A stretch of DNA of 64,000 nt from positions 7,954 through 71,953 of the forward strand of contig DATFWO010000318.1 in NCBI GenBank assembly GCA_035259205.1. Reading direction: 5' to 3'. Position 1 is the stretch's first letter. Each line of letters opens with the position of its first letter. The translations under genes were made by a program, and so were the position numbers. Positions 20,076-49,135 of this stretch are shown piece by piece. Below the pieces are notes generated by a model. It searched no databases, was not told where the DNA came from, and saw only the letters and a list, made by a program, of their open reading frames with translations. The DNA comes from Burkholderiales bacterium (GTDB lineage: Bacteria > Pseudomonadota > Gammaproteobacteria > Burkholderiales > SG8-41).

Positions 20076-20094
20076 GCGGCCGAGAGGGGGAAAC

Positions 20095-20135
20095 AAGAAA
20101 GGGCACGGCGATCGACGCCGTGCCCTTTTCGTTTT
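20095..20135. terminator. Rho-independent, potentially bidirectional terminator between convergent prsR and a PEP-CTERM gene
   Basis: A 10-bp perfect GC-rich stem gggcacggcg / cgccgtgccc with a 5-nt loop. It is flanked by aagaaa upstream and ttttcgtttt downstream. Confidence 0.75.
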
Positions 20136-20168
20136 AGTCCCGGTCTTGAAGACCGCTGCTGCGCACCC

Positions 20169-20954
20169 TCAGCTGCCGAGAATGGCGCGGCGTCGCACTA
20201 AAGCTGCCAGCCCGAAGAGTCCAATCCCGAGCAACGCCACTGTGCCAGGCGATGCTACGACCTGGGATGTGCGGAATCCGGGACTGAGCATATCCACCTT
20301 CCAGTTGTCGCCGCCCAGCACGCCCGCAACGAGGAGGTAGCGCGGTGCGCTGCCTCCTTGTCCCCCTGAGCCGCCTGTATCCACACCAGACCCACCGCCA
20401 CTGAGGGAGGGGATACTGCCGGTGTACACCACGAGGTTATTGGTGGTGCTTGAAGAAGAGTCGTTCGTCGTGCCCTGAGTCGTGTTCGCACACCCGCTGA
20501 AACAGGCGTAGGTGAAATCGTAATTCCCGTTGGGATTCTGGCTCCCGAAAAACACCGAAAGCTCTGGCGCGCCTTGCGCCCCGGAACCGGAGCCGGAACT
20601 ATCCGGCCAACCCAGCCGCAAGGCGTCTGCGTCGAGTCCCTCTGCTGGCAACTCGAACACCGCCACGGCTACGGTGCCGCCCGCATACTTCGTTAACGAT
20701 CCCCCTTCGTAGCTGCCGCCGGCAAGCTGGTTGCCAGTCCCGAATCCTCCGCTGTAGAGCGCGAGCTGGAGAATGTTCGTGAAGAGACTGCTACCCCCAA
20801 TCGAGCCGGTATTCACGCTCGAATACTGACCGGTATTAGCGGCTACCTGATAGGTACCTTGGGTGGTATAAGACGACAGCCACTGCGTCGCCCCCACAGG
20901 CGCAGCAATGAGGACTCCGAAGATCGCTGCCAAGAACACCAAAATTCGTACCAT
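20169..20954 (-). CDS. PEP-CTERM-type sorting-domain protein (variant motif), Gly/Ser/Thr-rich secreted protein
   Basis: Signal peptide MVRILVFLAAIFGVLIAAPVGA. C-terminus VASPGTVALLGIGLFGLAALVRRRA has the motif, TM helix and Arg cluster, with SPG in place of PEP. The start was chosen at the internal ATG because the longer ORF would include the sigma-54 promoter. Confidence 0.75.
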   Translation of the reverse strand: MVRILVFLAAIFGVLIAAPVGATQWLSSYTTQGTYQVAANTGQYSSVNTGSIGGSSLFTNILQLALYSGGFGTGNQLAGGSYEGGSLTKYAGGTVAVAVFELPAEGLDADALRLGWPDSSGSGSGAQGAPELSVFFGSQNPNGNYDFTYACFSGCANTTQGTTNDSSSSTTNNLVVYTGSIPSLSGGGSGVDTGGSGGQGGSAPRYLLVAGVLGGDNWKVDMLSPGFRTSQVVASPGTVALLGIGLFGLAALVRRRAILGS

Positions 20955-35690: not shown

Positions 35691-36428
35691 CTATCTTTTC
35701 TGCGCAATTTCCTCGGCGACGGTGCGGTAGAGCGAGCGGACCAGGAAATTGACGTCCTTTCCCACCCGCCCCGTGTTTATTCTCGAGGGAATGCGTTCGC
35801 CGCGGTGTTCGATCGCGCCGCCGATGACTTGAGGCCTGGTTCCGATAAGTCTGCCGATGCTGCTCACCTCTCTCGGTTCGGTCAGCATGAAAAGCGTTTC
35901 TATGCCATTCAACCGTGCGAGCTCGACGACGCCAAAGAAGAGGCCAGCCGAAATATACGGGAAGCGGGGATTTTTCCAGGTGCCGAAGTTCTTGTCGGCA
36001 GTTCCCTGCGGAGTCTGCGCTTCGCCCTTGCGCTTGCGAAACCGGGAGATGACGGCGAGCCGCGAGATCTCGCCGATGCTCTCGCGCGGGAGCTTGGCCG
36101 GATCGACGATGGAGCGATCCAGCGTGGCCGCGCAGCTTTTCTCGAACGGCAGCGGTTGGTGACGATCGTCGGCCCGTGTGCGGACGATGCGCGTGCAGCC
36201 GATGAAGTCGCCGAGCTGCACGCTGCGTATCAGCACGTGCAACGATTGAGCGTCGTAGGCGTCGGTCTCGCGCTCGTCCGGCCGCTCCCGTTCAAAGCCC
36301 AGGTCCACGCAATAGACCTGGTGGCGCAGCCGATAGACTTCGTCCTTCAACGTATCCGTGAGCGCCGGGACGATTTCGAAGTATTGCCTGAAGCCCTTAC
36401 CCAGATTCAATATTTCGGGTAAAAACAC
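35691..36428 (-). CDS. PEP-CTERM/exosortase-system-associated acyltransferase (long-chain N-acyl amino acid synthase-like, GNAT/LuxI-like fold)
   Basis: N-terminal FEIVPALTDTLKDEVYRLRHQVYCVDLGFE and ETDAYDAQSLHVLIRS ... IGCTRIV fit the pattern of the exosortase-associated NAS family. The genomic context (PEP-CTERM locus) agrees. Confidence 0.65.
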   Translation of the reverse strand: MFLPEILNLGKGFRQYFEIVPALTDTLKDEVYRLRHQVYCVDLGFERERPDERETDAYDAQSLHVLIRSVQLGDFIGCTRIVRTRADDRHQPLPFEKSCAATLDRSIVDPAKLPRESIGEISRLAVISRFRKRKGEAQTPQGTADKNFGTWKNPRFPYISAGLFFGVVELARLNGIETLFMLTEPREVSSIGRLIGTRPQVIGGAIEHRGERIPSRINTGRVGKDVNFLVRSLYRTVAEEIAQKR

Positions 36429-36469
36429 GGCGCGATATCCTGCAGCATCCCGTCGTCTGCCGCCCGGTG

Positions 36470-37231
36470 CTATTCAAGCCTTTGCAGGTAGTCCTTGGTG
36501 AAAACCCGGTCGGGCAGGTCGCGCAGTTTCATCCCCGAGTATTCCAGCACCGACTCATCGCCCTTGCGCAGCGCATCCTCCATTACCATGCGCGTCGGTC
36601 GCGCCTTGCCGAGCATGGTCTGGAAGTTCTCGTAGCGGGCGGTTTTGAGCAGACGGTTGGACAACGAGTAGAACTCGGCGCGGTGAGGCCAGAAATTGGA
36701 CTGCTTAACCCAGTAGACGACTTTTTGATAGGTCACGCCGCGGTCGACGGCGGTGAGTTCCAGCACGTAATAGGGCTCGCCGTCGATGGTGTCGGTGCGC
36801 AGGATCTTGGGATTGTAGTCGCCGCTGAAGTTCGATCGAGCGAGGTCACCATTGGCGACCTGGCCGGTGAGGCGCTGCGCCAGCCCGAGCCGCACCGGCT
36901 GCGATACGCTGGGCATGAATATCCACAGGTCGCGGCCTTTCATGAGCATGATCTGCCCGCGCTCGGCGACGGGCTCGGTGATCTGGACCACCGTATTCTC
37001 GTTGCCCTTGGACAGCACGCGATATTTCCGGACTTCGGCCGGCTGGCCCGGGGAGGTCGTGTTGATGGCGATCTCCACCTGAAAGCCCTCGCGCGGGAAG
37101 CGTATCTGGTCCGATTTTTCCAGTATACTTCTGGCGAGATCATCATCCGCAGCCCGGGCCACGTGGATGCCGGGCCCAGCGAGGCACAACAGCGCAGCGA
37201 TCAGCGCGCGTCTCAAGAATCGTCTTGTCAT
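36470..37231 (-). CDS. Periplasmic LolA-like outer-membrane lipoprotein-sorting-type protein
   Basis: Signal peptide MTRRFLRRALIAALLCLAGPGIHVARA. The remaining 250 aa resemble the LolA_like family often encoded with FtsX/MacB ABC transporters. The start is taken at the internal ATG because the longer ORF would overlap the divergent ABC gene. Confidence 0.6.
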   Translation of the reverse strand: MTRRFLRRALIAALLCLAGPGIHVARAADDDLARSILEKSDQIRFPREGFQVEIAINTTSPGQPAEVRKYRVLSKGNENTVVQITEPVAERGQIMLMKGRDLWIFMPSVSQPVRLGLAQRLTGQVANGDLARSNFSGDYNPKILRTDTIDGEPYYVLELTAVDRGVTYQKVVYWVKQSNFWPHRAEFYSLSNRLLKTARYENFQTMLGKARPTRMVMEDALRKGDESVLEYSGMKLRDLPDRVFTKDYLQRLE

Positions 37232-37282
37232 ATCCGCTCTGTGAAAGGGTGTCTGCACCCGCACATTTGAGGAGGGACTTGC

Positions 37283-38056
37283 ATGAGTGTTGCAAGCGTA
37301 GTTCGAATTGAAAACGTATGCAAAGACTACCAGATGGGCGGGCAGCAAGTCCATGCCCTGAAAAGCATTACGCTCAACATCGAGGATGGAGTTTTTCTCG
37401 CCATCGCCGGGCCGTCAGGCAGCGGCAAATCCACGCTGCTCAACCTGATGGGCTGCATCGACACGCCTACGACGGGCAAGATCTATATCAACGGGCAGGA
37501 CGTCACCGGCAAGACGCCCGACCAGCTCGCCGACCTCAGGGCGCGGACCATCGGGTTCATTTTCCAGACGTTCAACCTGCTGCCCGTGCTGACCGCGGCG
37601 GAGAACGTCGAGTATCCCCTCCTGAGGATGAAGGAACTGAGCGCCGCGGAGCGCCGCGACCGGGTCGCAAAATATCTCGGCATCGTCGGCCTCGAGAAGT
37701 ATCGCGACCGTCGTCCCAACCAGCTGAGCGGCGGCCAGCGGCAGCGGGTAGCGATTGCGCGCGCCCTGGCGACGCACCCCAAGATCGTGCTGGCGGACGA
37801 GCCGACCGCGAACCTGGATCACAAGACCGGCTCAGGGATCCTGCAGCTGATGAAGGAGAGCAACCGCTACTACAAGACCACCTTCATTTTTTCCACCCAC
37901 GATCGGCGCGTGATGGACATGGCGGACCGGCTGATCATGGTCGAGGACGGCGAGATTCGCATGTTCGGCATCAAGGGGGCGAACAAATGGTTGATGGTGA
38001 ACGAGCGTATGGGCACTATGGAGGACGCTCCGATCGTGGAAGACAACCTCATTTAG
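37283..38056 (+). CDS. ABC transporter ATP-binding protein (MacB/LolD-type)
   Basis: Walker A GPSGSGKST, Q-loop, signature LSGGQRQRVAIARAL and Walker B IVLADEPT. RBS ggaggga. No permease gene is adjacent. Confidence 0.85.
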   Translation: MSVASVVRIENVCKDYQMGGQQVHALKSITLNIEDGVFLAIAGPSGSGKSTLLNLMGCIDTPTTGKIYINGQDVTGKTPDQLADLRARTIGFIFQTFNLLPVLTAAENVEYPLLRMKELSAAERRDRVAKYLGIVGLEKYRDRRPNQLSGGQRQRVAIARALATHPKIVLADEPTANLDHKTGSGILQLMKESNRYYKTTFIFSTHDRRVMDMADRLIMVEDGEIRMFGIKGANKWLMVNERMGTMEDAPIVEDNLI

Positions 38057-38106
38057 CTTCTTGGCATCTTGATGTCGGACAACCCTTAACACAACGGGTC
38101 ATTCGA

Positions 38107-38520
38107 TTAAGCGATCGAAGGACGCTGCCCTTTAAGGCCGGGAAGCGCAACATCCACGAACACCCGTACATTCGGCGCTAGAAGTCGCGCCGTGCGGGTA
38201 GACAATCTGAACGGGTAGCGGTGGCGGCTCGAACGCACCGAAGACTCGCCGTAGTTTTTGCTTCGCTACCAGCAATTCAACTTGGAAGTAGGGGAACTGC
38301 GCGCAGCCAGGCCGGTGCGTTGCCGCGTCGGTCGCGACCTCAAAACTGGTTGGTGCGCAGAACCGGCTGAATCGGAACGCGTGCAGGCGACTACACGTCG
38401 GCGATCCGCCTCGTCCCGAGAGACCTCGTGCTCGCCTTCATCGTGGGGCTGCTCGACGGCGCTGTTCCCGGCGCGACGCGCATCCCGCTGGTCTACGTAC
38501 TGCCGCAGAAACGTCTGATT
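38107..38520 (-). pseudogene. Remnant of a LysR-family regulator (C-terminal substrate-binding half only, frameshifted, with an in-frame stop)
   Basis: Minus-strand translations in shifting frames give VLRTNQF(stop), FEVATDAATHRPGCAQFPYFQ, ELLVAKQKLRRVFGAFEPPPLPVQIVYPHG and LLAPNVRVFVDVAL(stop). Together these resemble the end of a LysR effector domain. No HTH-encoding 5' part is present. Confidence 0.45.
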
Positions 38521-38537
38521 CCAGGAAACGCGGGGGT

Positions 38538-39722
38538 TCAGGCTTCGAGGCCGACCTCCTTGTAGCTCAGGCCGAGCTTGCCCAGTGTCTTGGAGATCGC
38601 GCGCTGCAGGAGCACCTTGTAGCGCGACGCGAATTCCGCCACTTCGAAGGCGTTGCGCCAATAAACCGGATCGTTCTCCCGAAAGCGGATCATTTCGGCG
38701 AATTCCGGCTCGAAGCTGCAATAGCCGATGGTCTTGAAGTCGATCGCGGTCATGATCGAGAGCACCTGATTGTTGGTCAGGATGGGCGAGGAATCGATCT
38801 CGGGCATCAGTTGCGCGCTCTCGAGCTCGCCCAGTATGGCGGCCTTGTCCGGGCGCCAGGCGACGAAGGGTATTACATACTGCGGGACGCGATCGGGGTC
38901 CTTGCCCGTGCCGTCCCAGAACAGACCCTGGTCTTCCTTGGAGAAGATGTCGGCGATCTTGAAGCCCGAGCGCCGCTCCATGCGGTCGGTCAGCGTGCGC
39001 GAGCACATGTCCTCGAACGGCATGACGTAATAGGAATGGAACTGCATGATCAATTCCTGCGCGAAATCGACGCCCGCCAGCACCAGCGGAATGTCCATGT
39101 CGTAGGCGTAGTAGAAGCCCAGCATCTGGTTGAGCGTGCCGTCGAGGCGGTCGACCGTCTGATAGCTGCCCTTCATCTCGACGTTCTGCAGGGTGTAGCG
39201 GTAGAGTGTCTTGTAAACGGAGGAGCGCGGCTTGTAGACGATGTGGTCGAGGTCCAGCTTGGCCGCGACTTCCTTGCAGCGCTGCAGCGAGAGGATGGAG
39301 TAGAAGCCGTTGTCCCAGGTCATGAGCAGCAGGCGCAGGCCGGGATATTCCTTGCCCAGGCGTGAGAGCATATAGCAGCTGTCCTTGCCGCCGCTGAACA
39401 GGACGATGGCGTCGTAGCGGCCGCGCCCCTTGCCCTGGTGGCTTTTCAGCAGTTGATCGAGCTCCTTGCGCTGGTGCTCGACGTACTTCTTCTGCCAGAG
39501 CGTCTCGTCGTCGTTCGCCTTCAGCTTGTTGTGCTCGTGGCACAGGTTGCAGACGCCATCGGTCAGCGTGACGTAGGGCACGCGCGAGGAAATCACGCAC
39601 TGATTGCAGCGCTGCGCGACCGAGCCCTTGAACAGGCCGCGGACAAAGGGCCAGACATTCCGCGAAACGAAGTCAAACCGCCGCAAGTCATCGAGAATTT
39701 CTTGGTCGATATCACGCGCCAT
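38538..39722 (-). CDS. PP-loop ATP-pyrophosphatase family protein, N-acetyl sugar amidotransferase-like (WbuX/PseA/LfnA type)
   Basis: N-terminal zinc-ribbon-like CNQC ... CNLC, then YDAIVLFSGGKDSCYML (SGGxDS PP-loop). About 390 aa, as in that family. Confidence 0.6.
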   Translation of the reverse strand: MARDIDQEILDDLRRFDFVSRNVWPFVRGLFKGSVAQRCNQCVISSRVPYVTLTDGVCNLCHEHNKLKANDDETLWQKKYVEHQRKELDQLLKSHQGKGRGRYDAIVLFSGGKDSCYMLSRLGKEYPGLRLLLMTWDNGFYSILSLQRCKEVAAKLDLDHIVYKPRSSVYKTLYRYTLQNVEMKGSYQTVDRLDGTLNQMLGFYYAYDMDIPLVLAGVDFAQELIMQFHSYYVMPFEDMCSRTLTDRMERRSGFKIADIFSKEDQGLFWDGTGKDPDRVPQYVIPFVAWRPDKAAILGELESAQLMPEIDSSPILTNNQVLSIMTAIDFKTIGYCSFEPEFAEMIRFRENDPVYWRNAFEVAEFASRYKVLLQRAISKTLGKLGLSYKEVGLEA

Positions 39723-39762
39723 GGGCTCCTCCCGGGAAACGCATTGTGAGATGTGGACGAAC

Positions 39763-40029
39763 TCAGCCGGCCTTACCGCCGCGGGACGGCACCTTCACCA
39801 GCGGATGCACGCGGATATGGTTCTGGCGGAACTTCTGGCCGTCCAGCGCGTCCACCGCCCCCTTCGGGTCCGGGGTGTCCAGCTCGACATGGGCGTAAGG
39901 CTCACGGGTCGGGTTGACCCAGTCGGCATGCAAATCCACGGACAAGACCTTGCCATAAGGCTCAAAAAGCTTGCGGATGAAAGCCTCGTCGGCCTGGAAC
40001 GGAAGGCTGCTGATGAAAATGGTCGCCAT
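39763..40029 (-). CDS. RRM-type RNA-binding protein
   Basis: 88 aa. RNP-like IFISSLPF and YAHVEL. Strong RBS gaggagag. It is directly upstream of, and co-oriented with, the PP-loop gene. Confidence 0.7.
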   Translation of the reverse strand: MATIFISSLPFQADEAFIRKLFEPYGKVLSVDLHADWVNPTREPYAHVELDTPDPKGAVDALDGQKFRQNHIRVHPLVKVPSRGGKAG

Positions 40030-40564
40030 ATCCAACTCTCCTCGCACTGCGCCGAGTTCGCCTCTTCCCGGCGACTTGCTCCAGTCTGTTCCAGAATGAC
40101 GGCAAGATCAACCGGCCCGCAATTTCGCGGCAGCGAATTCCCCTCGGGAATATATTGCAAGGCCCAGTGCAAAGCAAGCGCTCTTCCGCGGCTGCGTTAT
40201 CCGGTATCGGCAGCTGCGCGTGCTCGCTTACCCGCTGCCCAACGCTCCCCCGCGCACTGCGTGCGCAAGGGCGGGCGAAACGAGGTAGCTTCCCGCGCAC
40301 CATACGAGTGTCGGTTCGGGAAATTATGACCACATCTTATCCGACAATTCTGACTGGTGCGGCTCAAACTCTGGTACGCTTTTACCTGTGATCTCCCGCG
40401 TCTATTGGCGAAAACTCGGGGATTCACAATGACCGTCGTACAGGTCAAACCCTGGCGAATCCCCCGGCGGAGCCGGGGCTTGCCTTTGCGAGTTAGCGCG
40501 ATTCGCCCACAATCCGGAAAGCTCGAACCGATCTTCCTGCGAGGTCACTCGGACAGCCGGCCCC

Positions 40565-42241
40565 ATGCCTGAAGAAAACGCCACGCCCATCATCAGTGCG
40601 TTCGATCCCCGCAGCAATCTGAGCGCTGCGCTCGTCGCGTGGCGAGCGATCCTCGGCGACCCCAACGTGCTCGTCGACGATGCGGCGCGCGATCGCTACG
40701 CCCGCAGCACCTCGTCGTCCAGCCGACGCCCGGCGGCAATCCTGAAGCCGGCCTCGCGCGACGAGGTCGTGGAACTCGTCAAAGTGGCGCGCCGCTGCCG
40801 GACGCCGCTCTATCCGATCAGCACTGGCCAAAACTGGGGCTACGGCGACGCCTGCGCGGTTTTCGATGGCCAGGTGATCGTCGATCTTGGCCGCATGAAC
40901 CGGATCCACCATGTCGACACCGAGCTGGGCTACGCCGTCATCGAGCCCGGCGTCACGCAGCGCCAGCTGTCCCGGTACCTCGCTCACCAGAACGTAGCGT
41001 TCTGGGTCGATTGCACGGGCGCAGGACCGAATACCAGCTTGATCGGGAACATCGTCGAGCGCGGTATGGGGCACAGCCCCTACGGTAACCGATTCCAGAC
41101 GATTTCGGGGATGGAGGTCGTGCTCGGAACCGGAGATGTGCTGCGCACAGGATTCGGCCAATTCCCGGGCGCAAAGACCACCCACCTCTATCCGTACGGC
41201 ATAGGCCCGTACCTCGACGGGATTTTCACCCAATCGAATTTCGGGATCGTCACCGAGCTTGGGCTGTGGCTGCTGCCGGTACCGGAGTCGTTCTGTCCGT
41301 ACATTGTGCTGTTCAACGAGGACCAGGACTTGCTCGGCGCCCTCGCGCCGCTGCGGGAGCTGCGGCTCCACCGGATACTGCAAAGCGTGCCCCACATCGG
41401 AAATGACCTTCGGGCGCTGGCCGCGGACGCGCCGTTTCCGCGCGACCGGCTGCCAGGACGCACCCGACTGACACCGGAGATCAGGGCGGCCCTGCGGAAG
41501 CGCGCGGGCATCGGTGCATGGTCGATGTCAGGCGCGTTCTACGGCACGTCACGCCAGGTTGCACTGCACAAGAGGCTTTTGAGGCGCGCGTTAGGCGGGG
41601 TCAACGCAAAGGTGATGTTCCTTCCACGGCACATTCTCGCGGCCGGACGGCTCTTTGTGCGGCTCTTCGGCCACTTGGCGTCGTTCCGGGGGTTGGAGAA
41701 GAAGATCCGCTTGGGCTCGGCACTCGCCGGCATGCATAGCGGCACGCCGACGGGGGCGTTCCTTCGTGGATGCTATTGGCGCCACCAAACAGGAGGACCG
41801 GCCGATTTTTCCGACGATACCGATCTCGCGGGCGAGCGCATCGGGATCATGTGGATGGCCCCGATCATCCCCTTCCGGCAGGACGATCTCGCGCTGCTCA
41901 ACCGGGAGATGGACACACTTTTTTCGCGCTTCGACTTCGATTGCCACGTTACCCTCAACATGATCAACGACCGCGCCCTGGCGGCCGTGTACACGATCGA
42001 ATACGATGCGGAAGACGACGCGGAAACTCGGAGGGGTATCGCGTGTTACGAGGCCGGCGTTCGCAGGCTGTTCGAGCTCGGCTACCCGTTATATCGATCC
42101 TCCGTGAGGGGGATGGCGCTCCTGCCATCGCAAGGCGATGGCAGCGTTGGCGATGCGGTCGGCCGGTTGAAAGGGGCGCTCGATCCGGACGGGGTCATTG
42201 CCCCCGGGCGCTACGATTGGCAGGACCAAGACACGAGGTGA
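40565..42241 (+). CDS. FAD-binding oxidase (FAD_binding_4 / vanillyl-alcohol-oxidase superfamily)
   Basis: PAAILKPASRDEVVELVKVARRCRTPLYPISTGQNWGYG is a typical FAD-binding PCMH segment. 558 aa. Confidence 0.7.
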   Translation: MPEENATPIISAFDPRSNLSAALVAWRAILGDPNVLVDDAARDRYARSTSSSSRRPAAILKPASRDEVVELVKVARRCRTPLYPISTGQNWGYGDACAVFDGQVIVDLGRMNRIHHVDTELGYAVIEPGVTQRQLSRYLAHQNVAFWVDCTGAGPNTSLIGNIVERGMGHSPYGNRFQTISGMEVVLGTGDVLRTGFGQFPGAKTTHLYPYGIGPYLDGIFTQSNFGIVTELGLWLLPVPESFCPYIVLFNEDQDLLGALAPLRELRLHRILQSVPHIGNDLRALAADAPFPRDRLPGRTRLTPEIRAALRKRAGIGAWSMSGAFYGTSRQVALHKRLLRRALGGVNAKVMFLPRHILAAGRLFVRLFGHLASFRGLEKKIRLGSALAGMHSGTPTGAFLRGCYWRHQTGGPADFSDDTDLAGERIGIMWMAPIIPFRQDDLALLNREMDTLFSRFDFDCHVTLNMINDRALAAVYTIEYDAEDDAETRRGIACYEAGVRRLFELGYPLYRSSVRGMALLPSQGDGSVGDAVGRLKGALDPDGVIAPGRYDWQDQDTR

Positions 42242-42424
42242 TTTGCGGCTGAGGCGAGGCGCGAGCTCCGGATCGCTCTGGACGCGCCTATCCTCGTTCG
42301 ATTGATGCCTTTCCGGTAAGGTGTGCTGTCGGGCTTGCACCATCCGGCAGGCGCGCCTTGGCGGCAGGATGAAACCAAAAAAAACGGCAGCCCTGCGGCT
42401 GCCGTTTCAGAACGCGCGCTGTTG

Positions 42425-43411
42425 CTATACAGAAGACTTGCTGCGGCGTGCCGCCACCCCGAATCCGGCCAGGGCCAGACCGAGAAGGGCGAGCGTGCCC
42501 GGCTCGGGAGCCGTCAGGACTTGGAACTGGAAGTCGCCGCGGGCAAACGGGTCGACGCCGTCTACGTATGTAGCGCCCGTCGTTGAAAGCCCCTTACCAC
42601 CTTGTACGGTGCCTGACCCCTTGAAGTCGACGGGAAACAGGGGATTGCCAAAGAAGGGGCAGCCTGCAGGAGGCAAGTTGGTGTCGCAAATCTGCGGGTC
42701 CACATCCGGCCCGGTGCCGCCCGCCCCTTGCTGGAACGCGAAGTCGGGCGTGCCAACAATGCCGGTGACTTGCTTCACGAGCGAGGGGTTGTCGCTTGCA
42801 GTAATTGTCAGGTGCTCGTTGCCGGCCGGCGCCCCGCTAGCCCCCGTGAACACAACGTTCCAAAATAACGTCCCGTTCGAAGCGCCCGTCAGGCAACTAG
42901 ACAAGCTGACTTGGGCACCGGCGAGCGCGGTGTTGCAGTCACCGGCAGCGAGATCCATATCCGCGATCGGGCCGTCCCAAGTACGGGCGATGGTGCCGGC
43001 CGGCGCCCCGGCGGTAGCCGCCGCTGGTATTACTAGTCCGGGCGCGAAGGGTACCGTATTAGAAAGGAATCCCGTGGGATTCGCGCCAAAAACAAAGAGG
43101 AATTGCCCGGGTCCAGCAGGGATCTTGGTAAGTACAAACTGATCTATGATACCGGTGAACTCGGGCGGAGTGATGGTAACCGAGCTGCCGGGCCCCGTGG
43201 CGGGGTGAGTTGACTGAACCGTGATGATCGCGACGATGCTGTCGCCCTTGTCGATCAAGCCATTCCCGTTCCGGTCGATAAAAAAGTCGAGCAGGTCGTC
43301 CTCGAACGCCGTGCCCGCCGGTCCGAAGAACGTGGGTGCAGCCGTCGCCGTCCCCCCCAGCCCCATGCCCAGTGCAAGCGCGACGCTTGCGGAAAGTGTT
43401 TTCAGTTTCAT
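42425..43411 (-). CDS. PEP-CTERM sorting-domain protein (canonical motif)
   Basis: Signal peptide MKLKTLSASVALALGMGLGGTATA. C-terminus VLTAPEPGTLALLGLALAGFGVAARRSK. RBS aaggga. Confidence 0.85.
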   Translation of the reverse strand: MKLKTLSASVALALGMGLGGTATAAPTFFGPAGTAFEDDLLDFFIDRNGNGLIDKGDSIVAIITVQSTHPATGPGSSVTITPPEFTGIIDQFVLTKIPAGPGQFLFVFGANPTGFLSNTVPFAPGLVIPAAATAGAPAGTIARTWDGPIADMDLAAGDCNTALAGAQVSLSSCLTGASNGTLFWNVVFTGASGAPAGNEHLTITASDNPSLVKQVTGIVGTPDFAFQQGAGGTGPDVDPQICDTNLPPAGCPFFGNPLFPVDFKGSGTVQGGKGLSTTGATYVDGVDPFARGDFQFQVLTAPEPGTLALLGLALAGFGVAARRSKSSV

Positions 43412-43473
43412 AGTTTGTCCCTTCGATGCCGGTTAATGTGTTGCGCCAAAAGCTTTTACCACACCCCTCGTAA

Positions 43474-43489
43474 AGCAACGGCCGTGCCA
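43474..43489 (-). promoter_or_regulatory. Sigma-54 (-24/-12) promoter (minus strand)
   Basis: The reverse complement reads TGGCAC-GGCCG-TTGCT, a consensus-grade match, 63 nt upstream of the ATG at 43411. Confidence 0.7.
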
Positions 43490-43563
43490 TAATTTATAAC
43501 TACTTGATACTTAGAATAAATATAAATACCCGCCCCAGACCACTGGCTTATCCGAAGCCGATT

Positions 43564-43580
43564 GATAAAATTTTCCGACA
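43564..43580 (-). promoter_or_regulatory. 17-bp box copy (reverse complement TGTCGGAAAATTTTATC), proximal site
   Basis: Lies 75 bp upstream of the promoter at 43474-43489, in gene orientation. Confidence 0.55.
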
Positions 43581-43676
43581 AAAAACAGGCGCAATTTACG
43601 CAGATGAGACCGGCTCTGGACGGCGTATTCGACAGCTTTCTTCATTTAATCCTTTAGTTACAGCTTGAAACCCGGT

Positions 43677-43693
43677 TGTAAAATTTACCGACA
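43677..43693 (-). promoter_or_regulatory. 17-bp box copy (reverse complement TGTCGGTAAATTTTACA), distal site
   Basis: Lies 113 bp from the proximal copy, in gene orientation. Confidence 0.6.
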
Positions 43694-44073
43694 AAACGCA
43701 GCGGCCGTGCGGGAAGCGAAGTAAGACATTGTTTTAAATAGATACCCAAACTACAGCGGAAAGCACCCGCCACTGGTCCAACCATCCGTTCACGGAATCG
43801 GACGCCTGCCCCGGTCATCGCTTCCAGAACGCTCGTCTGAACAACCCGTGAAAACGACAGGCCTTGCGGCACGTCCCCTCGTTCCTCGCATTATGGGCGC
43901 CCGGTGTGGCCCTAGCAAACGGCGGCGCACTACCCCATCGGGACGGCCGTAGATCGCCGCCTGCAGCGGCAGCGAGGCATGGTCTTCGCACCGCAACGGC
44001 TACAGGCCACGCACCTGCGGGCCGCGTGCAGAGGGTGCGTGGGGGCTCTTATGTCGCGCCGCCAGCTCGCGGG

Positions 44074-46017
44074 TTACCGGCGGGAAACGACATGGAAATT
44101 CGACGCGTGGACGTACTCGAACCGGCGCGCTATCTCGTAATCCATCGCGGCGAGGTACGATCGGAAGCGTTCGACGTTCGCGTTCGCCACTTCGACGAGC
44201 ATCGGCGGCCGGTGTGCCGCGACTAGCCGGCGCCCTCCTTGCAGGACCTCGATTTCCATGCCCTCGGCATCGATCTTCAGGAAATTGACCGGGCCTTCGA
44301 CAAGTTCATCCAGCGGCCATGCCTCGACGCCTGTCGCGTCGAGGCTCGGAGTCAGGCAGGTTGCCCCGAGGTTGTCCGCCTCCTTGGACACCAGTTTGAA
44401 CTGCCCGCGCCGATCCGCCGCCGCGACACGACGGATGGTCACGGCGGCGCCGTCCAGCCCATTCGCCCGGAGATTCGCCTCGAGCAGCGCGACCGCCGCC
44501 GGGTTGGGCTCTACGAGCAGCATCGATGACGGGCTGGTGAAGAGCCCCAGGAACACCGCGTGATTCCCGACGTGGGCGCCGACCTCCACGATACGCGCGC
44601 CGGCGGGCACGTGCTCGCGCAGGTAACGCAGCTCCGCAGCCTCGAAGAACCCTCCGGCGATGAAATGGCGGTCGATCGAGTCGCGCGGGTTTCCCACGTG
44701 GAATGTAATCTCGCGTCCCTCGAACGGGAAGCTGCAAGGTGCCGTGCGCCCGCGGAACCACGCCCGGATCCGGGCTTCCGCCGCGTCGCTCCATTGTGCC
44801 CCGGACGCCGACCGCGGCCCGACCGAGTGCCTGCCCCTGCGGTTGTGAAAGAGCGGCCGGGGCAGCTTCAGGCAGCGCGCGGAGTCCCACACGCGCAGGT
44901 AGTAGTCGAAATCCTCTCCCGCATCCAGGGACTCGTCGAACAGATGGTGCGACGCAATCCCCGTGCGCACAAAGTGCCCCATCTGCAGCGTGAGCGAAGG
45001 GTGCAGGAACAGCACGTCAGAGAGGCTTGCCGAGCACCAGAGCTGGTCGGCGCGAAGGATCGCGTCGGCGGGACGATCCCGAAACGTGGAAATTGCGCCC
45101 CAGATGGCATCGTGCTCGGCGAGATACGGAGCAACGACCGCGAACGCGTCCGCGCTCATCGTGTCGTCCGCATCGAGAAAGAACACGTAGTCGAAGCCCT
45201 CGGCCGCCGCCTGCCGCGTGCCCTCGTTGCGAGCCCGCGAACGGCCCAGCGCGCCTTGTCGGTCGTCGATGCGAAGATGGCGCACCTCGGCAAAACGCCC
45301 TGGGTCGGCAACGAACGCGCACTCTACCGACCGCGCACATTCATCCGCCAAATCCACGTGGCCGGGACCCACGGGCGTGATCACGGCGCACCGCAGGTCG
45401 CGCGCCGCTGCGTCGAGACGGGCCGTCACACACGGGTCCGGCGCCCGCCCCAGGCGCCGCAGCGCCTCCCGGCGGTTGTAGGCCGCCTCGACAAAGGACG
45501 GTGCTTGAGCGAGGGCCGCGTCGAACTCGGCGAGTGCCGCTGCGACTTCCCCGCGCTCAAGCAGTGCGCCACCGAGGGCGTTATGTGCGGCAGGCAGTAC
45601 CGGGTTCAAGCGCAGTGCGCGGCGCCAGCACTCCCCGGCCATTTCGAATTCACCGCACTCGCGCAGAGATGCGCCCAAAGCCGCGAGCATCTGGGCATCC
45701 GCACTCGGCAATCGTAATGCCGCTACCAACGCGGCGCGCGCCTCGGACAGTTTGCCGGTCTTGAGCAGGACCGAGCCCTGGAAAAAGCGGACCACCGCGC
45801 TCTCCCCGCCCAGGCGCAGAGCGTCGCCGGCGAGGCGCGCCGCGACCGCATAGTTGCCCACCTGATCGGCGATGACGGCGAGCATGTACGTCGCGCCGGC
45901 ATGGCGGGGATTCCATTCGATGGCCTTGCGATACAGGGTCTCGGCCTCGCGCAGCCGGCCTGCCTGGTGCGCCCGCAGCGCGCGTTGATACGGCGAATCG
46001 GCCGGACGTCTTGTCAT
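44074..46017 (-). CDS. Triple-fusion protein: TPR repeats, family-2 glycosyltransferase and FkbM-type methyltransferase
   Basis: N-terminal TPR region (AETLYRKAIEWNPRHAGA and following). GT2 core ITPVGPG ... VFFLDADD. C-terminal FkbM-like VEVGAHVGNHAVFLG ... FLKIDAEGMEIEVLQG. Confidence 0.7.
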   Translation of the reverse strand: MTRRPADSPYQRALRAHQAGRLREAETLYRKAIEWNPRHAGATYMLAVIADQVGNYAVAARLAGDALRLGGESAVVRFFQGSVLLKTGKLSEARAALVAALRLPSADAQMLAALGASLRECGEFEMAGECWRRALRLNPVLPAAHNALGGALLERGEVAAALAEFDAALAQAPSFVEAAYNRREALRRLGRAPDPCVTARLDAAARDLRCAVITPVGPGHVDLADECARSVECAFVADPGRFAEVRHLRIDDRQGALGRSRARNEGTRQAAAEGFDYVFFLDADDTMSADAFAVVAPYLAEHDAIWGAISTFRDRPADAILRADQLWCSASLSDVLFLHPSLTLQMGHFVRTGIASHHLFDESLDAGEDFDYYLRVWDSARCLKLPRPLFHNRRGRHSVGPRSASGAQWSDAAEARIRAWFRGRTAPCSFPFEGREITFHVGNPRDSIDRHFIAGGFFEAAELRYLREHVPAGARIVEVGAHVGNHAVFLGLFTSPSSMLLVEPNPAAVALLEANLRANGLDGAAVTIRRVAAADRRGQFKLVSKEADNLGATCLTPSLDATGVEAWPLDELVEGPVNFLKIDAEGMEIEVLQGGRRLVAAHRPPMLVEVANANVERFRSYLAAMDYEIARRFEYVHASNFHVVSRR

Positions 46018-46105
46018 GGCAGAACTTGATTTAAAACGCGAATCGCACCAGCGAGCGGGCCGTTATTGTATAGGGGAGTCAGGGGTTTCAGGGTGTGGCC
46101 GACTT

Positions 46106-47677
46106 ATGGCAGAGTTACGCGATAACCACGCCAACGGCCGATCGGCGAGGGAGCAGCGTGTGAGCAGACCGGTAGCCGGCGCGGGAATGCGGCATCAAGT
46201 CGCCCGGTTCCTCGAACGGGCCCAGGCACAATTTCAGGCGGCGGCCTACCGGGAGGCCGGCGATATCGCCCAGCGGGTCCTGGCACTCGACGCGAACAAC
46301 GCGGAGGCCTATCACCTGCTCGGGGCGATCGCGCACCGGGAAGAGCGGTTTGCCGAGGCGGAGGCCCTGCTCGACAAGGCCATCAGTCTCAACCGCCGCT
46401 CTCCGTACTTCCGGCATAGCTTGGGAAACGTCTATCGCGCGCAGGGAAAGTTCGAAGCGGCGGAGGCTGCGTACCGCCAGGCGCTGAAGCTCGATCCCGG
46501 GCTGTCGGCCGCGTACCTCGGCCTGGCCACGGCATTGCGAACGCTCGGCCGGTCGCGTGATGCGGTCGTGTACCTGGAGCGGTATCTGCAGCGTGAACCG
46601 AACGATGCAGAGGCCTACAACGAACTGGGGCTGAACTACCTGGAGCTGGGAAGGCTTGATCTGGCTGTCGAGCAGTTGCGGGCGGCATTGAGACTCAACC
46701 CCGCTCACAAGGCCGCCCGGGACAATATCGCGCTGGTCCTCCTCCTCGCCGAAAACTTCCGGGAGGGGTGGCCCGCTTGGCTGCGCAGCCTGACGGAACT
46801 TCCTTTTCCGCATCCGTCTACCGCGACTGCGCCGTTCGAAGGCAGGCGCGTCCTCATCCATGGCAGCATGGGTGTGGGCGACGAAATCATGTACGCTTCC
46901 TGCCTTCCCGCGCTCACTCCGCATGCCGAGGAAGTCACGCTGCATTGCGACCGCAGGCTGGCGCCCCTCTTCGAGCGCTCTTTCCCGTCCGTGCGCACGG
47001 TTGGCGTGGATAGGCAAGGTCATACGCAGCACGTTATCGGCATTCTGGCGCCGGATGAAATCCACATCGCGGGTTCTTTCCTGCCTGCTTACTTCCCGCC
47101 GAACATCGAACGCTTCGCGCGGCGCAGATCTTTCCTCGTGGCCGACCCGGCGCAGGTCGCCGAGTGGCGCAAACGGTTTGACGGACTCGGTACGGGACTC
47201 AGGATCGGCCTGTCGTGGCGGGGCGGCGCCGATCCCGTCAATCGCCGTCAGCGGTCCATTCCGCTTGCGGCATGGGGCTCCATTCTTGCCGTTCGGGGCG
47301 TTCACTTCGTCAACCTCCAGTATGGGGATGTGGACGGGGAGATCGAGGAGGCGCGGCTCGCGGTGCCGATTAACCGCTGGCGCGATGCGAACCCGCTCGC
47401 CGATCTCGACTTCTTCGCCGCCCAGATCGCGGCGCTGGACCTCGTCATCTCGGTGGACAACACGACCGTCCACATGGCCGGCGCGCTCGGGATAGCCACG
47501 TGGGCACTGCTGCCGAAAGTGCCGGATTGGCGGTGGACGATGGCGGGGACGACGACCCACTGGTACCCGTCCGTGCGCCTCTTGCGTCAGCAGGAAGCGG
47601 GCCGGTGGGAAGGCGTGATGCAGGAAGTGGCAACGAGACTCGAAAGTTGTGTCGCTGCAGGGCTCGTCGATACCTAG
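46106..47677 (+). CDS. TPR-repeat protein with a C-terminal GT9 (heptosyltransferase-like) glycosyltransferase fold
   Basis: TPR region (NAEAYHLLGAIAHRE, AEAAYRQALKLDP, AEAYNELGLNYLE). C-terminal RIGLSWRGG ... FVNLQYGD ... ISVDNTTVHMAGALG. The start is uncertain (ATG at 46106 or 46187); the ORF-track start at 46016 would overlap the divergent gene's start codon. Confidence 0.6.
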   Translation: MAELRDNHANGRSAREQRVSRPVAGAGMRHQVARFLERAQAQFQAAAYREAGDIAQRVLALDANNAEAYHLLGAIAHREERFAEAEALLDKAISLNRRSPYFRHSLGNVYRAQGKFEAAEAAYRQALKLDPGLSAAYLGLATALRTLGRSRDAVVYLERYLQREPNDAEAYNELGLNYLELGRLDLAVEQLRAALRLNPAHKAARDNIALVLLLAENFREGWPAWLRSLTELPFPHPSTATAPFEGRRVLIHGSMGVGDEIMYASCLPALTPHAEEVTLHCDRRLAPLFERSFPSVRTVGVDRQGHTQHVIGILAPDEIHIAGSFLPAYFPPNIERFARRRSFLVADPAQVAEWRKRFDGLGTGLRIGLSWRGGADPVNRRQRSIPLAAWGSILAVRGVHFVNLQYGDVDGEIEEARLAVPINRWRDANPLADLDFFAAQIAALDLVISVDNTTVHMAGALGIATWALLPKVPDWRWTMAGTTTHWYPSVRLLRQQEAGRWEGVMQEVATRLESCVAAGLVDT

Positions 47678-47892
47678 TCCGGTAACGAAATCGCTTCGTT
47701 GGCGGTATTCGTCGGTAGATTGTCGCTTAATTGCGGATGTTTGCTGATTGAGGAAGCGGTATAGCTTAGGCTAGCACCGCGGCGCGCGACGGTGGTATAA
47801 CTGGCCGGTCCTGGAGTTCACGAAATGCGCCATCTGCTCCTCGATCGTCGGCAGGCACGCGGCTCGGGGCGGCGGTCGGCGACTCGATAAAC

Positions 47893-49122
47893 ATGCGATC
47901 GCTCTTGCTCGATTTCTCGCTGGCGTTGCGTAATGTCCTGCGCCACCGGCGCCGCAGTGCCGTGGCGATCGGCGCCGTCGCGTTCGGCATCATGGCGCTC
48001 CTGATCGCAGGCGGTTTCATCGAGTGGATCTTCCAGGATCTTCGCGAGTCCACGATCCAGTCGCAACTGGGCCATTTGCAGATCGCCAGGCCGGGGTATC
48101 ACGACGCCGGCAAGGCCGATCCCTACGCGTATCTGTTGCCCGATGAGATCCCGCAGTTCGAGACGCCGAACGAGTCGCGGCGCATCAAGACTGTGGCCCC
48201 ACGCTTGTCCTTCAGCGGGCTTGCCAGCCACGGCGACGCGAGCGTTTCGTTCATCGGCGACGGCGTCAGTCCGCGGGATGAAGCCCTGTTCGGCCGGGGC
48301 GTGCTGATCACCGCGGGCAGGAATCTTGCGCCGGACGAGCCGCTCACCGTGATCATGGGGGAGGGACTCGCGCGCAACCTCGGAGTGAAGATCGGCGACA
48401 AGGTCGTGCTCCTCGTCAATACCGCGACCGGGGGCACCAACGGGGTCGAGCTGACCGTGACCGGCCTGTTTGCTACGGTCAGCAAGGCCTACGACGATGC
48501 GGCGCTGCGCATGCCCATCGCGACGGCGCGCACGCTGCTGCGCACGAAGGGCTCGCACGTCTGGGTCGTGCTGCTGAACGAAACCGCCGCTACCGACGGC
48601 ATGCTCGCGCGGCTGAGCGCCGCGCTGCCGAAGGACCAGTTCGAGGTTGTGCCGTGGCACCAGCTCGCGGACTTCTACAACAAGATGAAACGGCTTTTCA
48701 CCCAGCAGGTCCACGGCGTGCGCCTGATCATCGCGCTGATCATCCTGCTCAGCATCTCGAACACCATGACGATGAGCGTGCTCGAGCGGATCAGCGAGAT
48801 CGGGACGTCCATGGCGCTCGGGAGCAAGCGCGTCGGCGTCCTGCGCCAGTTCGTCGGCGAAGGCGTGCTGCTCGGCTGTTTCGGCGGGTTGCTGGGCTTG
48901 CTGGTGGGCACCGCGCTGGCCGCCACGATCTCGGCCATCGGCATTCCGATGCCGCCGCCGCCCGGCCTGTCGTACGGCTTGACCGGCCAGATCATCGTGA
49001 CCTGGCAAATTGCGCTCGAGGCGCTGCTCCTCGCGATCGCCACGACGCTCGTCGGCAGCATGTACCCGGCCTGGACCGCGTCGCGCAAGCAGATCGTGGA
49101 CGCGCTGCGTCACAGCCGCTGA
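47893..49122 (+). CDS. ABC transporter permease (FtsX/MacB-LolC type), subunit 1
   Basis: N-terminal LALRNVLRHRRRSAVAIGAVAFG, a large periplasmic loop and three C-terminal TM helices with the FtsX signature (ISEIGTSMALGSKR). Confidence 0.8.
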   Translation: MRSLLLDFSLALRNVLRHRRRSAVAIGAVAFGIMALLIAGGFIEWIFQDLRESTIQSQLGHLQIARPGYHDAGKADPYAYLLPDEIPQFETPNESRRIKTVAPRLSFSGLASHGDASVSFIGDGVSPRDEALFGRGVLITAGRNLAPDEPLTVIMGEGLARNLGVKIGDKVVLLVNTATGGTNGVELTVTGLFATVSKAYDDAALRMPIATARTLLRTKGSHVWVVLLNETAATDGMLARLSAALPKDQFEVVPWHQLADFYNKMKRLFTQQVHGVRLIIALIILLSISNTMTMSVLERISEIGTSMALGSKRVGVLRQFVGEGVLLGCFGGLLGLLVGTALAATISAIGIPMPPPPGLSYGLTGQIIVTWQIALEALLLAIATTLVGSMYPAWTASRKQIVDALRHSR

Positions 49123-49135
49123 TCCCGGCATCGCC

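Follow-up and report, generated by a model that had tools for sequence, protein, structure and literature searches.

A Lol-like gene set linked to a PEP-CTERM-associated synthase of N-acyl amino acids in a Burkholderiales bacterium, and a possible envelope route for its lipid

The DNA analysed here, called the window, is a stretch of 64,000 nt from a Burkholderiales bacterium (SG8-41; GCA_035259205.1, contig DATFWO010000318.1, positions 7,954-71,953 of the forward strand). No RNA run was found to contain its sequence, and matches came solely from soil-metagenome DNA runs. The window holds PEP-CTERM machinery, with PrsK (876 bits), PrsR (750 bits), four PrsT-like genes (three of the paralogs score 677-919 bits), a TIGR03013 glycosyltransferase (543 bits) and PEP-CTERM genes. 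No exosortase gene was seen within the 64 kb. [quoted passage not shown] The open reading frames and spacings are exactly as it gave them, the three identities are right, with family scores far exceeding chance, and the PEP-CTERM link holds, because the machinery listed above shares the window.

The NAS gene (35691-36428, minus strand) encodes a predicted cytoplasmic member of TIGR03694, the PEP-CTERM/exosortase-associated acyltransferases, which it matches with 225.3 bits (cutoff 111.95) over residues 11-243 of 245. Pfam adds matches to PF13444 and PF21926 (FeeM). The start codon is GTG at 36428, with AGGA 8 nt upstream. The AlphaFold model (pLDDT 84) has a GNAT fold of the FeeM/AHL-synthase type, and the top Foldseek matches are RpaI, MesI, LasI, TofI, BjaI and FeeM (2G0B), with probability 1.00. 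One glutamate, E96 in the motif LPFE, is invariant in an alignment of 18 sequences and is a candidate counterpart of the catalytic Glu95 of FeeM. Long-chain N-acyl amides are the product of PEP-CTERM-type NAS enzymes (PMC9762135, citing Craig 2011), and a polysaccharide band is lost in a Methylomonas NAS mutant (PMC11072679). By analogy with family members elsewhere, whose activity is known, the enzyme encoded at 35691-36428 would synthesize N-acyl amino acids.

Upstream on the same strand, the LolA-like gene (36470-37231) encodes a periplasmic protein of family PF17131 ('TP_0789-like'; 173.7 bits, cutoff 30). It is the ortholog of Nitrosomonas europaea NE2245, whose structure (PDB 3BUU) it matches with 355 bits over residues 32-253 (222 residues) and whose depositors labelled it an 'uncharacterized LolA superfamily protein'. 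Searches with the canonical LolA and LolB models gave no NCBIfam match at E<=0.01, and Pfam returned PF17131 LolA_like alone. The protein carries a Sec signal peptide (MTRRFLRRALIAALLCLAGPGIHVARA|ADDD). The cysteine in this signal peptide is not conserved among orthologs, so the protein is not a lipoprotein. A longer start at 37354 was rejected.

Only 51 bp (37232-37282) separate the LolA-like/NAS operon from the divergently oriented ATPase gene, and in the 18 loci compared this gap stays short throughout (34-84 nt in relatives). In most of these loci a -10-like, A/T-rich hexamer (TCAAAT in the window) is similarly placed. A promoter scan of 35.1-38.7 kb found no consensus sigma-70 site, and terminator-like sites occurred there at chance level. 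Over the window as a whole, matches to the PrsR-type box TGTAAAA-N5-CGACA are more frequent than expected (10 matches, 1.7 expected), and the window scan placed none near the NAS, LolA-like and ATPase genes or near the FtsX permease pair described below. With neither a consensus sigma-70 site nor a PrsR-type box, a promoter in the divergent region can only be presumed. Sigma-54-like promoters occur in the window at 15159(+) and 43489(-) only. In the window scans neither a PrsR box nor a shared promoter connects the operon with the PEP-CTERM regulon, a point against the lipid route proposed below.

The ATPase (37283-38056, plus strand) belongs to the type VII ABC class and resembles LolD, DevA and MacB. 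It matches ABC_tran with 121 bits, and its best full-length matches are to DevA (226 bits), LolD (221.9 bits, cutoff 307.75) and MacB (204 bits), all of them below the equivalog cutoffs. The preliminary description called it an orphan of MacB type. This part of its interpretation did not stand. Two FtsX-type permeases and a DUF1302 barrel lie 9.8 kb away in the window and are contiguous with the ATPase gene in relatives. 'MacB-type' is too loose, as the ATPase is not fused to a permease and has no membrane-fusion adaptor, and the nearest solved permease relatives are LolE, LolC and LolF.

Both permeases are FtsX-type by Pfam and LolC/E-like. Permease 1 (47893-49122, plus strand, 409 aa, MacB_PCD and FtsX domains) has LolE, LolC and LolF as its nearest PDB chains, and permease 2 (49136-50347, plus strand, 403 aa) matches the PDB LolE with 75 bits. 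Against the lolCE model TIGR02212 they score 89.8 and 95.2 bits, respectively (cutoff 362.45). The start of permease 2 was taken as 49136 from the sequence and from homologues of 403 aa, and the longest-ORF start at 49010 was rejected. The two are paralogs with 41% identity and probably form a heterodimer like LolC/LolE. Judged by its family matches and by its neighbours in relatives, the ATPase is the motor subunit of this split exporter.

Could the ATPase instead be a stand-alone or MacB-type motor, or serve another exporter? The window shows no permease adjacent to it, and its N-terminal MacB match (NF007826) reaches 204 bits. However, that score is far under the cutoff of 966, the aligned region is the ATPase part only, and there is no adaptor. 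The window does have a second exporter with FtsX permeases (59442-63741), consisting of a HlyD/MacA-like adaptor, an ATPase of its own and two FtsX permeases (61415-63741). Its ATPase is only 49% identical to the one considered here. Synteny contradicts the idea too, since orthologs of the ATPase (70-86% identity) adjoin the DUF1302 gene and the LolC/E-like pair in at least 22 genomes. A stand-alone, MacB-type or borrowed motor is therefore hardly credible.

Following the permeases on the opposite strand is a gene for a DUF1302-family outer-membrane beta-barrel with a signal peptide (50364-51953, minus strand; PF06980, 57.3 bits, cutoff 23.2). A longer start at 51974 was rejected. The N-terminal stretch is Pro/Ala-rich, and the conserved motif RDSLF(G/E)DD occurs in it twice. 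The structural model is of moderate quality (pLDDT 62) with about 20 strands, and its top PDB matches are all outer-membrane porins. The preliminary description had overlooked this barrel.

What splits the unit in this genome is a variable block of 9.8 kb between the ATPase and the permeases (38057-47892). It contains a LysR remnant, a WbuX-like PP-loop amidotransferase, an RRM protein, two TPR-glycosyltransferases, a FAD oxidase (40565-42241) and a PepA-like PEP-CTERM protein (42425-43411). The last of these is accompanied by two PrsR-type boxes and by the sigma-54-like promoter at 43489. A 444-aa ORF at 38266-39600 has no family match and overlaps the WbuX-like gene, and was rejected. In the nearest relatives (loci L001/L007, L006 and L085) the same slot is occupied instead by ThiF, a flavin oxidase, a glycosyltransferase and a PEP-CTERM gene.

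Is the association of these genes conserved? Homologue searches yielded close relatives (at least 57% identity for NAS and at least 72% for the LolA-like protein), and the counts cover those: 79 species-level NAS loci, with a genome scan of the best 80 of 464 relatives and a limit of 10 kb around the NAS for partner genes. At least one transporter part lies within this limit in 49 of the 79 NAS loci (62%), and all five transporter genes do in 22, among the best 80 of 464 relatives. On the same basis (79 loci, best 80 of 464 relatives) the LolA-like gene is present in 30, the ATPase in 28, DUF1302 in 28 and the FtsX pair in 39-42 (39 for permease 1 orthologs). Nitrosospira, Nitrosomonas and related MAGs have all six genes side by side, and the order FtsX-FtsX> <DUF1302 <ATPase LolA-like> NAS> occurs in a Nitrosospira MAG, in a JGI contig and elsewhere. 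In 32 of 33 loci the ATPase gene lies next to the LolA-like gene and diverges from it. Where the LolA-like and NAS genes are both present they share a strand (34 of 34 loci), with the LolA-like gene upstream in 33 and a gap below 150 nt in 21. Annotation of the modules in relatives called no adaptor of the HlyD type. That NAS, LolA-like protein, ATPase, FtsX pair and DUF1302 barrel constitute one module is thus well supported. The neighbourhood recurs in other genomes, and this conserved synteny backs the dedicated extraction-and-shuttle route of the preliminary description, whose interpretation as a whole is partly supported: the gene identities, the PEP-CTERM link and the shuttle idea survive, and the labels 'orphan' and 'MacB-type' do not.

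The link also withstands rearrangement of the genes. Thauera, Azoarcus and Zoogloeaceae have the NAS directly 3' of the FtsX pair. Two loci (L034 and L077) have the order FtsX-FtsX-NAS-NAS2 <DUF1302 <ATPase; the LolA-like gene comes after the ATPase in L034, and the L077 contig stops within the ATPase gene. In another locus (L025) the FtsX pair is relocated downstream.

Conservation of this kind raises the question of whether the module serves the NAS at all. It might be a general envelope or hydrophobe transporter, acting in outer-membrane lipid homeostasis or in hydrophobe uptake or efflux, that sits near the NAS through inherited synteny in an exopolysaccharide island and has no cargo relation to it. 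The link to the LolA-like gene is found mostly in Nitrosomonadaceae and in the clade of the window itself, the context class tracks NAS phylogeny, and about five gains or losses suffice on the NAS tree; much of the count is therefore inherited synteny and not a set of independent events. Of the 79 loci, 30 have a NAS but not the module, and 20 have no partner gene at all inside 10 kb (at least four of those 20 contigs are short). Conversely, locus L086 has the module with no NAS within 10 kb, yet retains a PEP-CTERM gene and has a fusion of ThiF with an oxidase. The phenotypes of DUF1302 systems elsewhere are pleiotropic or catabolic (10.1101/072470; 10.1101/2020.07.04.188060; PMC6394551). However, the transporter part that the NAS adjoins differs between families. 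In Nitrosomonadaceae it is the LolA-like gene, Zoogloeaceae and Rhodocyclaceae have the FtsX pair in that place, and L034 and L077 have both. Simple inheritance is insufficient to explain this. The gaps are operon-like (41-70 nt), and the genes around the module serve lipid tailoring (ThiF, flavin oxidase, glycosyltransferase, FAD oxidase) and not catabolism. A general transporter unrelated to the NAS therefore seems unlikely.

The alternative is that the transporter and the synthase work together. With a pump, a carrier and a barrel adjoining the NAS, the gene set probably exports the NAS lipid, a fatty-acylated amino acid, to the cell surface of these bacteria, which build PEP-CTERM/exopolysaccharide biofilms. 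For a Lol-like, adaptor-free envelope route assembled from the six-gene unit and dedicated to the NAS-derived lipid, we see an even chance. The cargo, the direction of transport and the hand-over steps are what we infer. The cytoplasmic NAS would join an activated fatty acyl group to an amino acid, and the resulting N-acyl amino acid, with its long acyl chain, would partition into the inner membrane. The ATPase (37283-38056) and the FtsX heterodimer (47893-50347) might then pull the lipid from the periplasmic leaflet and hand it to the soluble NE2245-type carrier (36470-37231), which would deliver it to the DUF1302 barrel (50364-51953). The lipid could end up inserted in the outer membrane or released into the exopolysaccharide/PEP-CTERM matrix. 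The lack of a membrane-fusion adaptor suggests a shuttle like Lol and not a channel like MacAB-TolC.

One clue to the nature of the cargo comes from the tailoring genes. ThiF and the flavin oxidase occur in 34 and 30, respectively, of the 79 related NAS loci (best 80 of 464 relatives), and in many relatives they would turn the lipid into an acyl-oxazolone. A tblastn search of the 64-kb window with representatives of ThiF and of the nitroreductase-superfamily flavin oxidase gave no match at E<=1e-8. The cargo in this genome is therefore more likely a plain N-acyl amino acid or another derivative. These acyl-oxazolone genes, near the NAS in many relatives and absent here, were also overlooked by the preliminary description.

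An observation that does not fit a free lipid is that LolCDE-type machines are known for extracting acylated proteins and not free lipids, and LolC, LolE and LolF are the nearest characterised relatives of the permeases. Perhaps, then, the module carries proteins. PEP-CTERM proteins, processed by exosortase and either anchored through the NAS-derived lipid or covalently bound to it, would be pulled from the inner membrane by the FtsX/ATPase machine and pass to the LolA-like carrier and on to DUF1302 at the surface. The window's module does have a PEP-CTERM gene within it or next to it (42425-43411), as do those of L001, L003 (PepA family, 181 bits), L085 and L086, the last of which retains it despite the absence of a NAS, and a PEP-CTERM ORF is found within 10 kb in at least 33 of 79 NAS loci. 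However, PEP-CTERM genes are plentiful across such loci, which makes proximity weak evidence, and the papers examined report no lipidation of PEP-CTERM proteins. An N-acyl amino acid has a blocked amine and so would be a poor transpeptidase acceptor, and the ThiF and oxidase genes, a potential source of a reactive oxazolone, are missing from the window. Overall, protein cargo appears distinctly unlikely. Very improbable, in our estimate, is the bolder idea of a second 'Lol pathway' belonging to the exosortase system, in which the NAS lipid (oxazolone-activated in relatives) anchors exosortase-cleaved PEP-CTERM proteins and the module takes them from the inner membrane to the surface. If true, it would account for the NAS/PEP-CTERM link of 2011 and the fate of exosortase products together.

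The Lol-like lipid route would offer a concrete account of the fate of the NAS lipid and of its tie to exosortase. It would give a candidate function to the orphan crystal structure 3BUU and a functional hypothesis for one branch of the DUF1302 barrels, a family for which we know of no solved structure and no defined function. Lol-type mechanotransmission would extend beyond lipoproteins and include a small amphiphile or a new class of anchored protein. The hosts, which include ammonia oxidisers, Zoogloea, Thauera and Azoarcus, are relevant to wastewater floc formation and soil nitrification.

How does the module compare with known systems? The NAS is a full-score member of the PEP-CTERM-associated family (TIGR03694; Craig, Cherry & Brady 2011, J Bacteriol 193:5707, as described in citing papers) in a PrsK/PrsR/PrsT locus. 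The papers examined on NAS and PEP-CTERM describe the link in general and do not mention a LolA-like, FtsX or DUF1302 export module; nor are such genes mentioned in Haft 2006. A search of the open literature found no description of a link between NAS and a Lol-like module. The acyl-oxazolone pathways OxzA/OxzB of Pseudoalteromonas rubra and TyzABC of Mycobacterium tuberculosis, the latter encoded next to the lipid exporter gene mmpL9 (10.1101/2020.06.11.147165; PMC10404671), resemble those related loci in which ThiF and flavin oxidase flank the NAS, and NCBIfam NF011425 is a GNAT-ThiF-oxidase fusion. The window differs in lacking both genes, and its exporter is of the ABC/LolA-like/DUF1302 kind and not MmpL. 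The tripartite exporters MacAB-TolC and DevBCA resemble the module in their type VII ABC ATPase and in a permease architecture of FtsX/MacB_PCD type. However, the module has no MacA/DevB adaptor, fused ATPase-permease or TolC-type duct.

A parallel for the barrel is found in clusters of DUF1302 with DUF1329, BNR and RND proteins, namely AmeABCD of Castellaniella defragrans, PP_0765/0766 of Pseudomonas putida and Sama_1588-1591 of Shewanella amazonensis (PMC6394551; 10.1101/072470; 10.1101/2020.07.04.188060; PMC13499233). There, DUF1302 barrels, together with the LolA/LolB-like DUF1329 and an inner-membrane RND pump, are implicated with hydrophobic substrates (PMC6394551; 10.1101/072470; 10.1101/2020.07.04.188060), and an AlphaFold-Multimer complex of DUF1302 with DUF1329 has an ipTM of 0.84 (PMC13499233). 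Both systems thus combine a DUF1302 barrel, a periplasmic protein of the LolA/LolB superfamily and an inner-membrane pump. However, the pump here is ABC/FtsX and not RND/MMPL, the carrier is PF17131 (250 aa) and not DUF1329 (~450 aa), there is no BNR protein, and the tie is to biosynthesis (NAS) and not to catabolism.

The inner-membrane and periplasmic parts can be compared with LolCDE-LolA-LolB, the lipoprotein trafficking pathway of E. coli. In both there is one LolD-like ATPase, two paralogous four-helix FtsX permeases of ~400 aa each with MacB-type periplasmic domains, and a soluble LolA-fold protein, with no membrane-fusion adaptor. The differences are that the carrier is PF17131 and not canonical LolA, that the receiver is a large DUF1302 barrel where E. 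coli has the lipoprotein LolB, and that the module is not a housekeeping one, being located in an island of exopolysaccharide and PEP-CTERM genes, with a link to a lipid synthase. The permeases (90-95 against 362 bits) and the ATPase (222 against 308) also fall far under the equivalog cutoffs, and the proteins are therefore Lol-like in architecture and not a housekeeping LolCDE.

Three genes, N-acyl amino acid synthase-like (NAS), LolA-like and ABC ATPase, lie exactly where the preliminary description had placed them. NAS (36428 to 35691, minus strand) encodes 245 aa that score 225 bits against TIGR03694 (cutoff 112), a family named 'PEP-CTERM/exosortase system-associated acyltransferase'. PF13444 and FeeM also match, and the predicted model (pLDDT 84) adopts the fold of AHL synthases and FeeM. 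The GTG start, preceded by AGGA, follows the LolA-like gene (37231 to 36470, minus strand) by 41 bp. The latter encodes 253 aa with a Sec signal peptide, matches PF17131 LolA_like (174 bits) and is an ortholog of Nitrosomonas europaea NE2245 (355 bits, 222 residues aligned), the crystal structure of which (3BUU) was deposited under the title 'uncharacterized LolA superfamily protein'. The cysteine of its signal peptide is not conserved, which makes it a soluble protein of the periplasm, not a lipoprotein. Its true start is 37231 (MTRRFLRR), the longest-ORF start overshooting through 37232-37354; here, as for two genes below, starts were judged by signal or transmembrane sequences and ortholog lengths. 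The ATPase gene (37283 to 38056, plus strand, 257 aa) diverges 51 bp away. Of the models it matches over their full length, DevA, LolD and the N-terminal part of MacB rank highest, and it scores below the equivalog cutoffs for all three alike.

What does this ATPase work with? It had been described as an orphan motor of the MacB type, but two FtsX permease genes and a DUF1302 gene are present in the same window and are contiguous with the ATPase gene in relatives. Synteny with a separate FtsX pair and DUF1302 contradicts both the orphan and the MacB-type reading. The permeases (47893-49122 and 49136-50347), both FtsX/MacB_PCD by Pfam, are paralogs 41% identical to each other. For both, the best NCBIfam model is lolCE (90-95 bits, far under the 362 cutoff), and the nearest solved structures are LolE, LolC and LolF, with MacB ranking behind. 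The second starts at 49136 (MISLALRN), its longest ORF overshooting over 49010-49135. The DUF1302 gene (50364-51953, identified by Pfam) is convergent with the permease genes and starts at 51953 (MRRTRADR; overshoot 51954-51974). Its product has a signal peptide and a beta-rich model of moderate confidence (pLDDT 62), the structural matches of which are outer-membrane porins only.

A Pro/Ala-rich linker (the N-terminal ~100 aa) precedes the barrel, as it does in three relatives' loci (L007, L044 and L059). It carries a conserved acidic motif, RDSLF(G/E)DD, of which the window protein has two copies (TRDSLFEDDAPP and TRDSLFGDDAPP). The motif is single in most orthologs (consensus SRESLFGD) and might act as a peptide on which the LolA-like carrier, or the periplasmic domains of the permeases, dock. 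Divergent from the DUF1302 gene is a gene for an AsmA-like protein (52296-55769, 1157 aa). This pairing recurs at the edge of locus L001/L007 (67% identity) but does not appear in Nitrosospira loci, in which DUF1302 lies between the ATPase gene and the FtsX pair. Such a bridge-type lipid transporter beside the barrel may be relevant.

No ATPase gene adjoins the FtsX pair or the DUF1302 gene in the window, where 9.8 kb part the ATPase from the FtsX pair. This gap holds a LysR remnant, a WbuX-like PP-loop amidotransferase, an RRM protein, an FAD oxidase, a PepA-like PEP-CTERM gene and two TPR-glycosyltransferases. In nearer relatives (L001/L007 and L085) the two are likewise apart, by a few kilobases that hold ThiF, a flavin oxidase and a PEP-CTERM gene. 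Therefore, the gap is a variable 'cargo' slot and no sign of an orphan ATPase. The FAD_binding_4 oxidase (40565-42241) recurs near the module in 9 of the best 79 loci from 464 relatives (29-53% identity), for example directly upstream of the FtsX pair in a Nitrosospira MAG (L003/L013) and in L077, and may be a lipid-tailoring enzyme. A second FtsX exporter (59442-63741) is complete, with an HlyD adaptor and its own ATPase, which is only 49% identical to that at 37283.

A scan with a NAS alignment, one genome per species, found 464 relatives. From these the best 79 loci, all of Betaproteobacteria-type lineages (~50-85% identity), were retained, and partner genes found by tblastn of the window's proteins were counted within 10 kb of NAS. 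Among these best 79, the LolA-like gene is near NAS in 30, the ATPase ortholog in 28, DUF1302 in 28 and the FtsX pair in 39-42; at least one transporter part is present in 49 (62%) and all five in 22. Where both flanks extend for at least 9 kb (51 loci), the LolA-like gene occurs in 17, one or more parts in 30 and all five in 15. In 32 of 33 loci the LolA-like and ATPase genes sit side by side and diverge. The LolA-like gene shares the NAS strand in all 34 loci that have both; it is upstream in 33, and less than 150 nt separates the two in 21. A Nitrosospira MAG and a soil contig from JGI show the contiguous order FtsX-FtsX> <DUF1302 <ATPase LolA-like> NAS>. The earlier proposal is partly supported: conserved synteny with transporter genes favours its dedicated extraction and shuttle route and contradicts its orphan, MacB-type ATPase.

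Three layouts occur: the full module in Nitrosomonadaceae and the window's clade, <oxidase <ThiF FtsX> FtsX> NAS> in Thauera, Azoarcus, other Zoogloeaceae and Rhodocyclaceae, and <oxidase <ThiF NAS> in Zoogloea and Aromatoleum. A further Burkholderiales clade among the 79 loci has no partner gene near NAS. The layouts track lineage on the NAS tree, where the LolA-like label changes ~5 times, against 24.7 when shuffled, so much of the linkage count is inherited. Alternatively, the module might serve hydrophobe or envelope transport in general, its adjacency to NAS being inherited. The lineage pattern fits this, but repeated re-linkage of NAS to different transporter parts does not, and we regard it as unlikely. 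NAS adjoins different parts of one transporter in different families, and all components are together in L034; without functional coupling, such a pattern across families is hard to account for. L077 has the order of L034 up to the ATPase gene, inside which the contig ends, ahead of any LolA-like position. It is very probable that the six genes form one unit.

Some loci merit separate mention. In L085 and L087, both ENA long-read contigs, the module's FtsX, ATPase and DUF1302 genes are called as fragments, most likely through long-read frameshift error rather than gene decay. Directly downstream of the LolA-like/NAS pair in L087 is an NRPS cluster (12169-20753; condensation, AMP-binding and PP-binding domains), which hints at lipopeptide-type elaboration in some lineages.

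Of the best 79 loci from 464 relatives, 34 have ThiF-like genes flanking NAS and 30 have flavin-oxidase genes of the nitroreductase superfamily there (NCBIfam families PRK08223, PRK14851 and Rv1355c). NAS, ThiF and flavin oxidase make up the experimentally characterised acyl-oxazolone pathway OxzA/OxzB (bioRxiv 10.1101/2020.06.11.147165), and the same set, TyzABC, lies beside the lipid exporter gene mmpL9 (PMC10404671). In NF011425 (PRK14852, 989 aa) a GNAT, ThiF and a flavin oxidase appear to be naturally fused. A second, divergent FeeM-like GNAT (cluster c46) follows NAS in some loci (L034:10941-11882, L077 from 9148, L003:1-664); that in L003 is a Pfam FeeM match, and the GNAT of the fusion appears to be of this type. 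By tblastn, neither ThiF nor the oxidase is found in the window. Therefore, unless these genes lie elsewhere in the genome, an N-acyl amino acid that is plain, or tailored in another way, is the likelier cargo here.

Could the cargo instead be a lipid-tethered, exosortase-processed PEP-CTERM protein? Acylated proteins are substrates of LolCDE relatives. The window, L001, L003, L085 and L086 (the last without NAS within 10 kb, and with a ThiF-oxidase fusion kept) have PEP-CTERM genes inside or next to the module, and at least 33 of the best 79 loci from 464 relatives have one within 10 kb. However, such genes are common across these islands and no lipidation of PEP-CTERM proteins is known, making this quite improbable.

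The window, from a soil-metagenome contig, is an XrtA-type PEP-CTERM/exopolysaccharide island with PrsK (16618-18696), PrsR (18693-20075), three full-score PrsT paralogs plus a fourth long TPR protein, a TIGR03013 priming glycosyltransferase, sugar-nucleotide enzymes and PEP-CTERM proteins. The box TGTAAAA-N5-CGACA has 10 matches in it (at most 2 mismatches; 1.7 expected by chance), at 330, 7911, 14945, 21136, 21268, 24899, 43564, 43677, 63762 and 63895. The PEP-CTERM gene at 43411 has both PrsR-type boxes and a sigma-54-like promoter. The latter (43489-43475, minus strand) is one of only two TGGCAC-N5-TTGC matches in the window. The other (15159-15173, plus strand) begins 7 nt into the TIGR03013 glycosyltransferase's longest ORF, so the gene probably starts downstream of the TTG at 15152. 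Scans of the window found no PrsR-type box near the NAS, LolA-like and ATPase genes and no sigma-54 promoter near the NAS/LolA-like operon, and a promoter scan found no consensus sigma-70 site there. The LolA-like/ATPase divergent region is short in all compared relatives (34-84 nt), and most have an A/T-rich, -10-like hexamer at a similar position, tentatively a putative -10 element.

From these gene identities, folds and linkage we infer a direction of transport, hand-over steps and a cargo. In an adaptor-free, Lol-like shuttle, the ATPase and permease heterodimer would pull the NAS lipid out of the inner membrane, the NE2245-type carrier would take it through the periplasm and the DUF1302 barrel would accept it in the outer membrane. 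Among the annotated modules, none had a gene called as a membrane-fusion adaptor. With the NAS lipid taken as the cargo, we give the full model about an even chance. Parts of it are supported by published work: PEP-CTERM-type NAS enzymes make long-chain N-acyl amides (PMC9762135), and a Methylomonas NAS mutant loses a polysaccharide band (PMC11072679). Each of the six proteins falls in a named family, and papers already describe the NAS/PEP-CTERM link; a link between TIGR03694 NAS genes and a LolA-like/FtsX/DUF1302 exporter was not found in the open literature. Further support comes from systems in which hydrophobic substrates are handled by DUF1302 barrels together with DUF1329 proteins, which are LolA/LolB-like, and an RND pump of the inner membrane (PMC6394551; bioRxiv 10.1101/072470; 10.1101/2020.07.04.188060), the DUF1302-DUF1329 complex being predicted at high confidence (PMC13499233). 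We class the finding as envelope transport of the Lol or DUF1302 type that is coupled to a lipid synthase, with an ATPase and FtsX pair where the DUF1302/DUF1329 systems have an RND pump.
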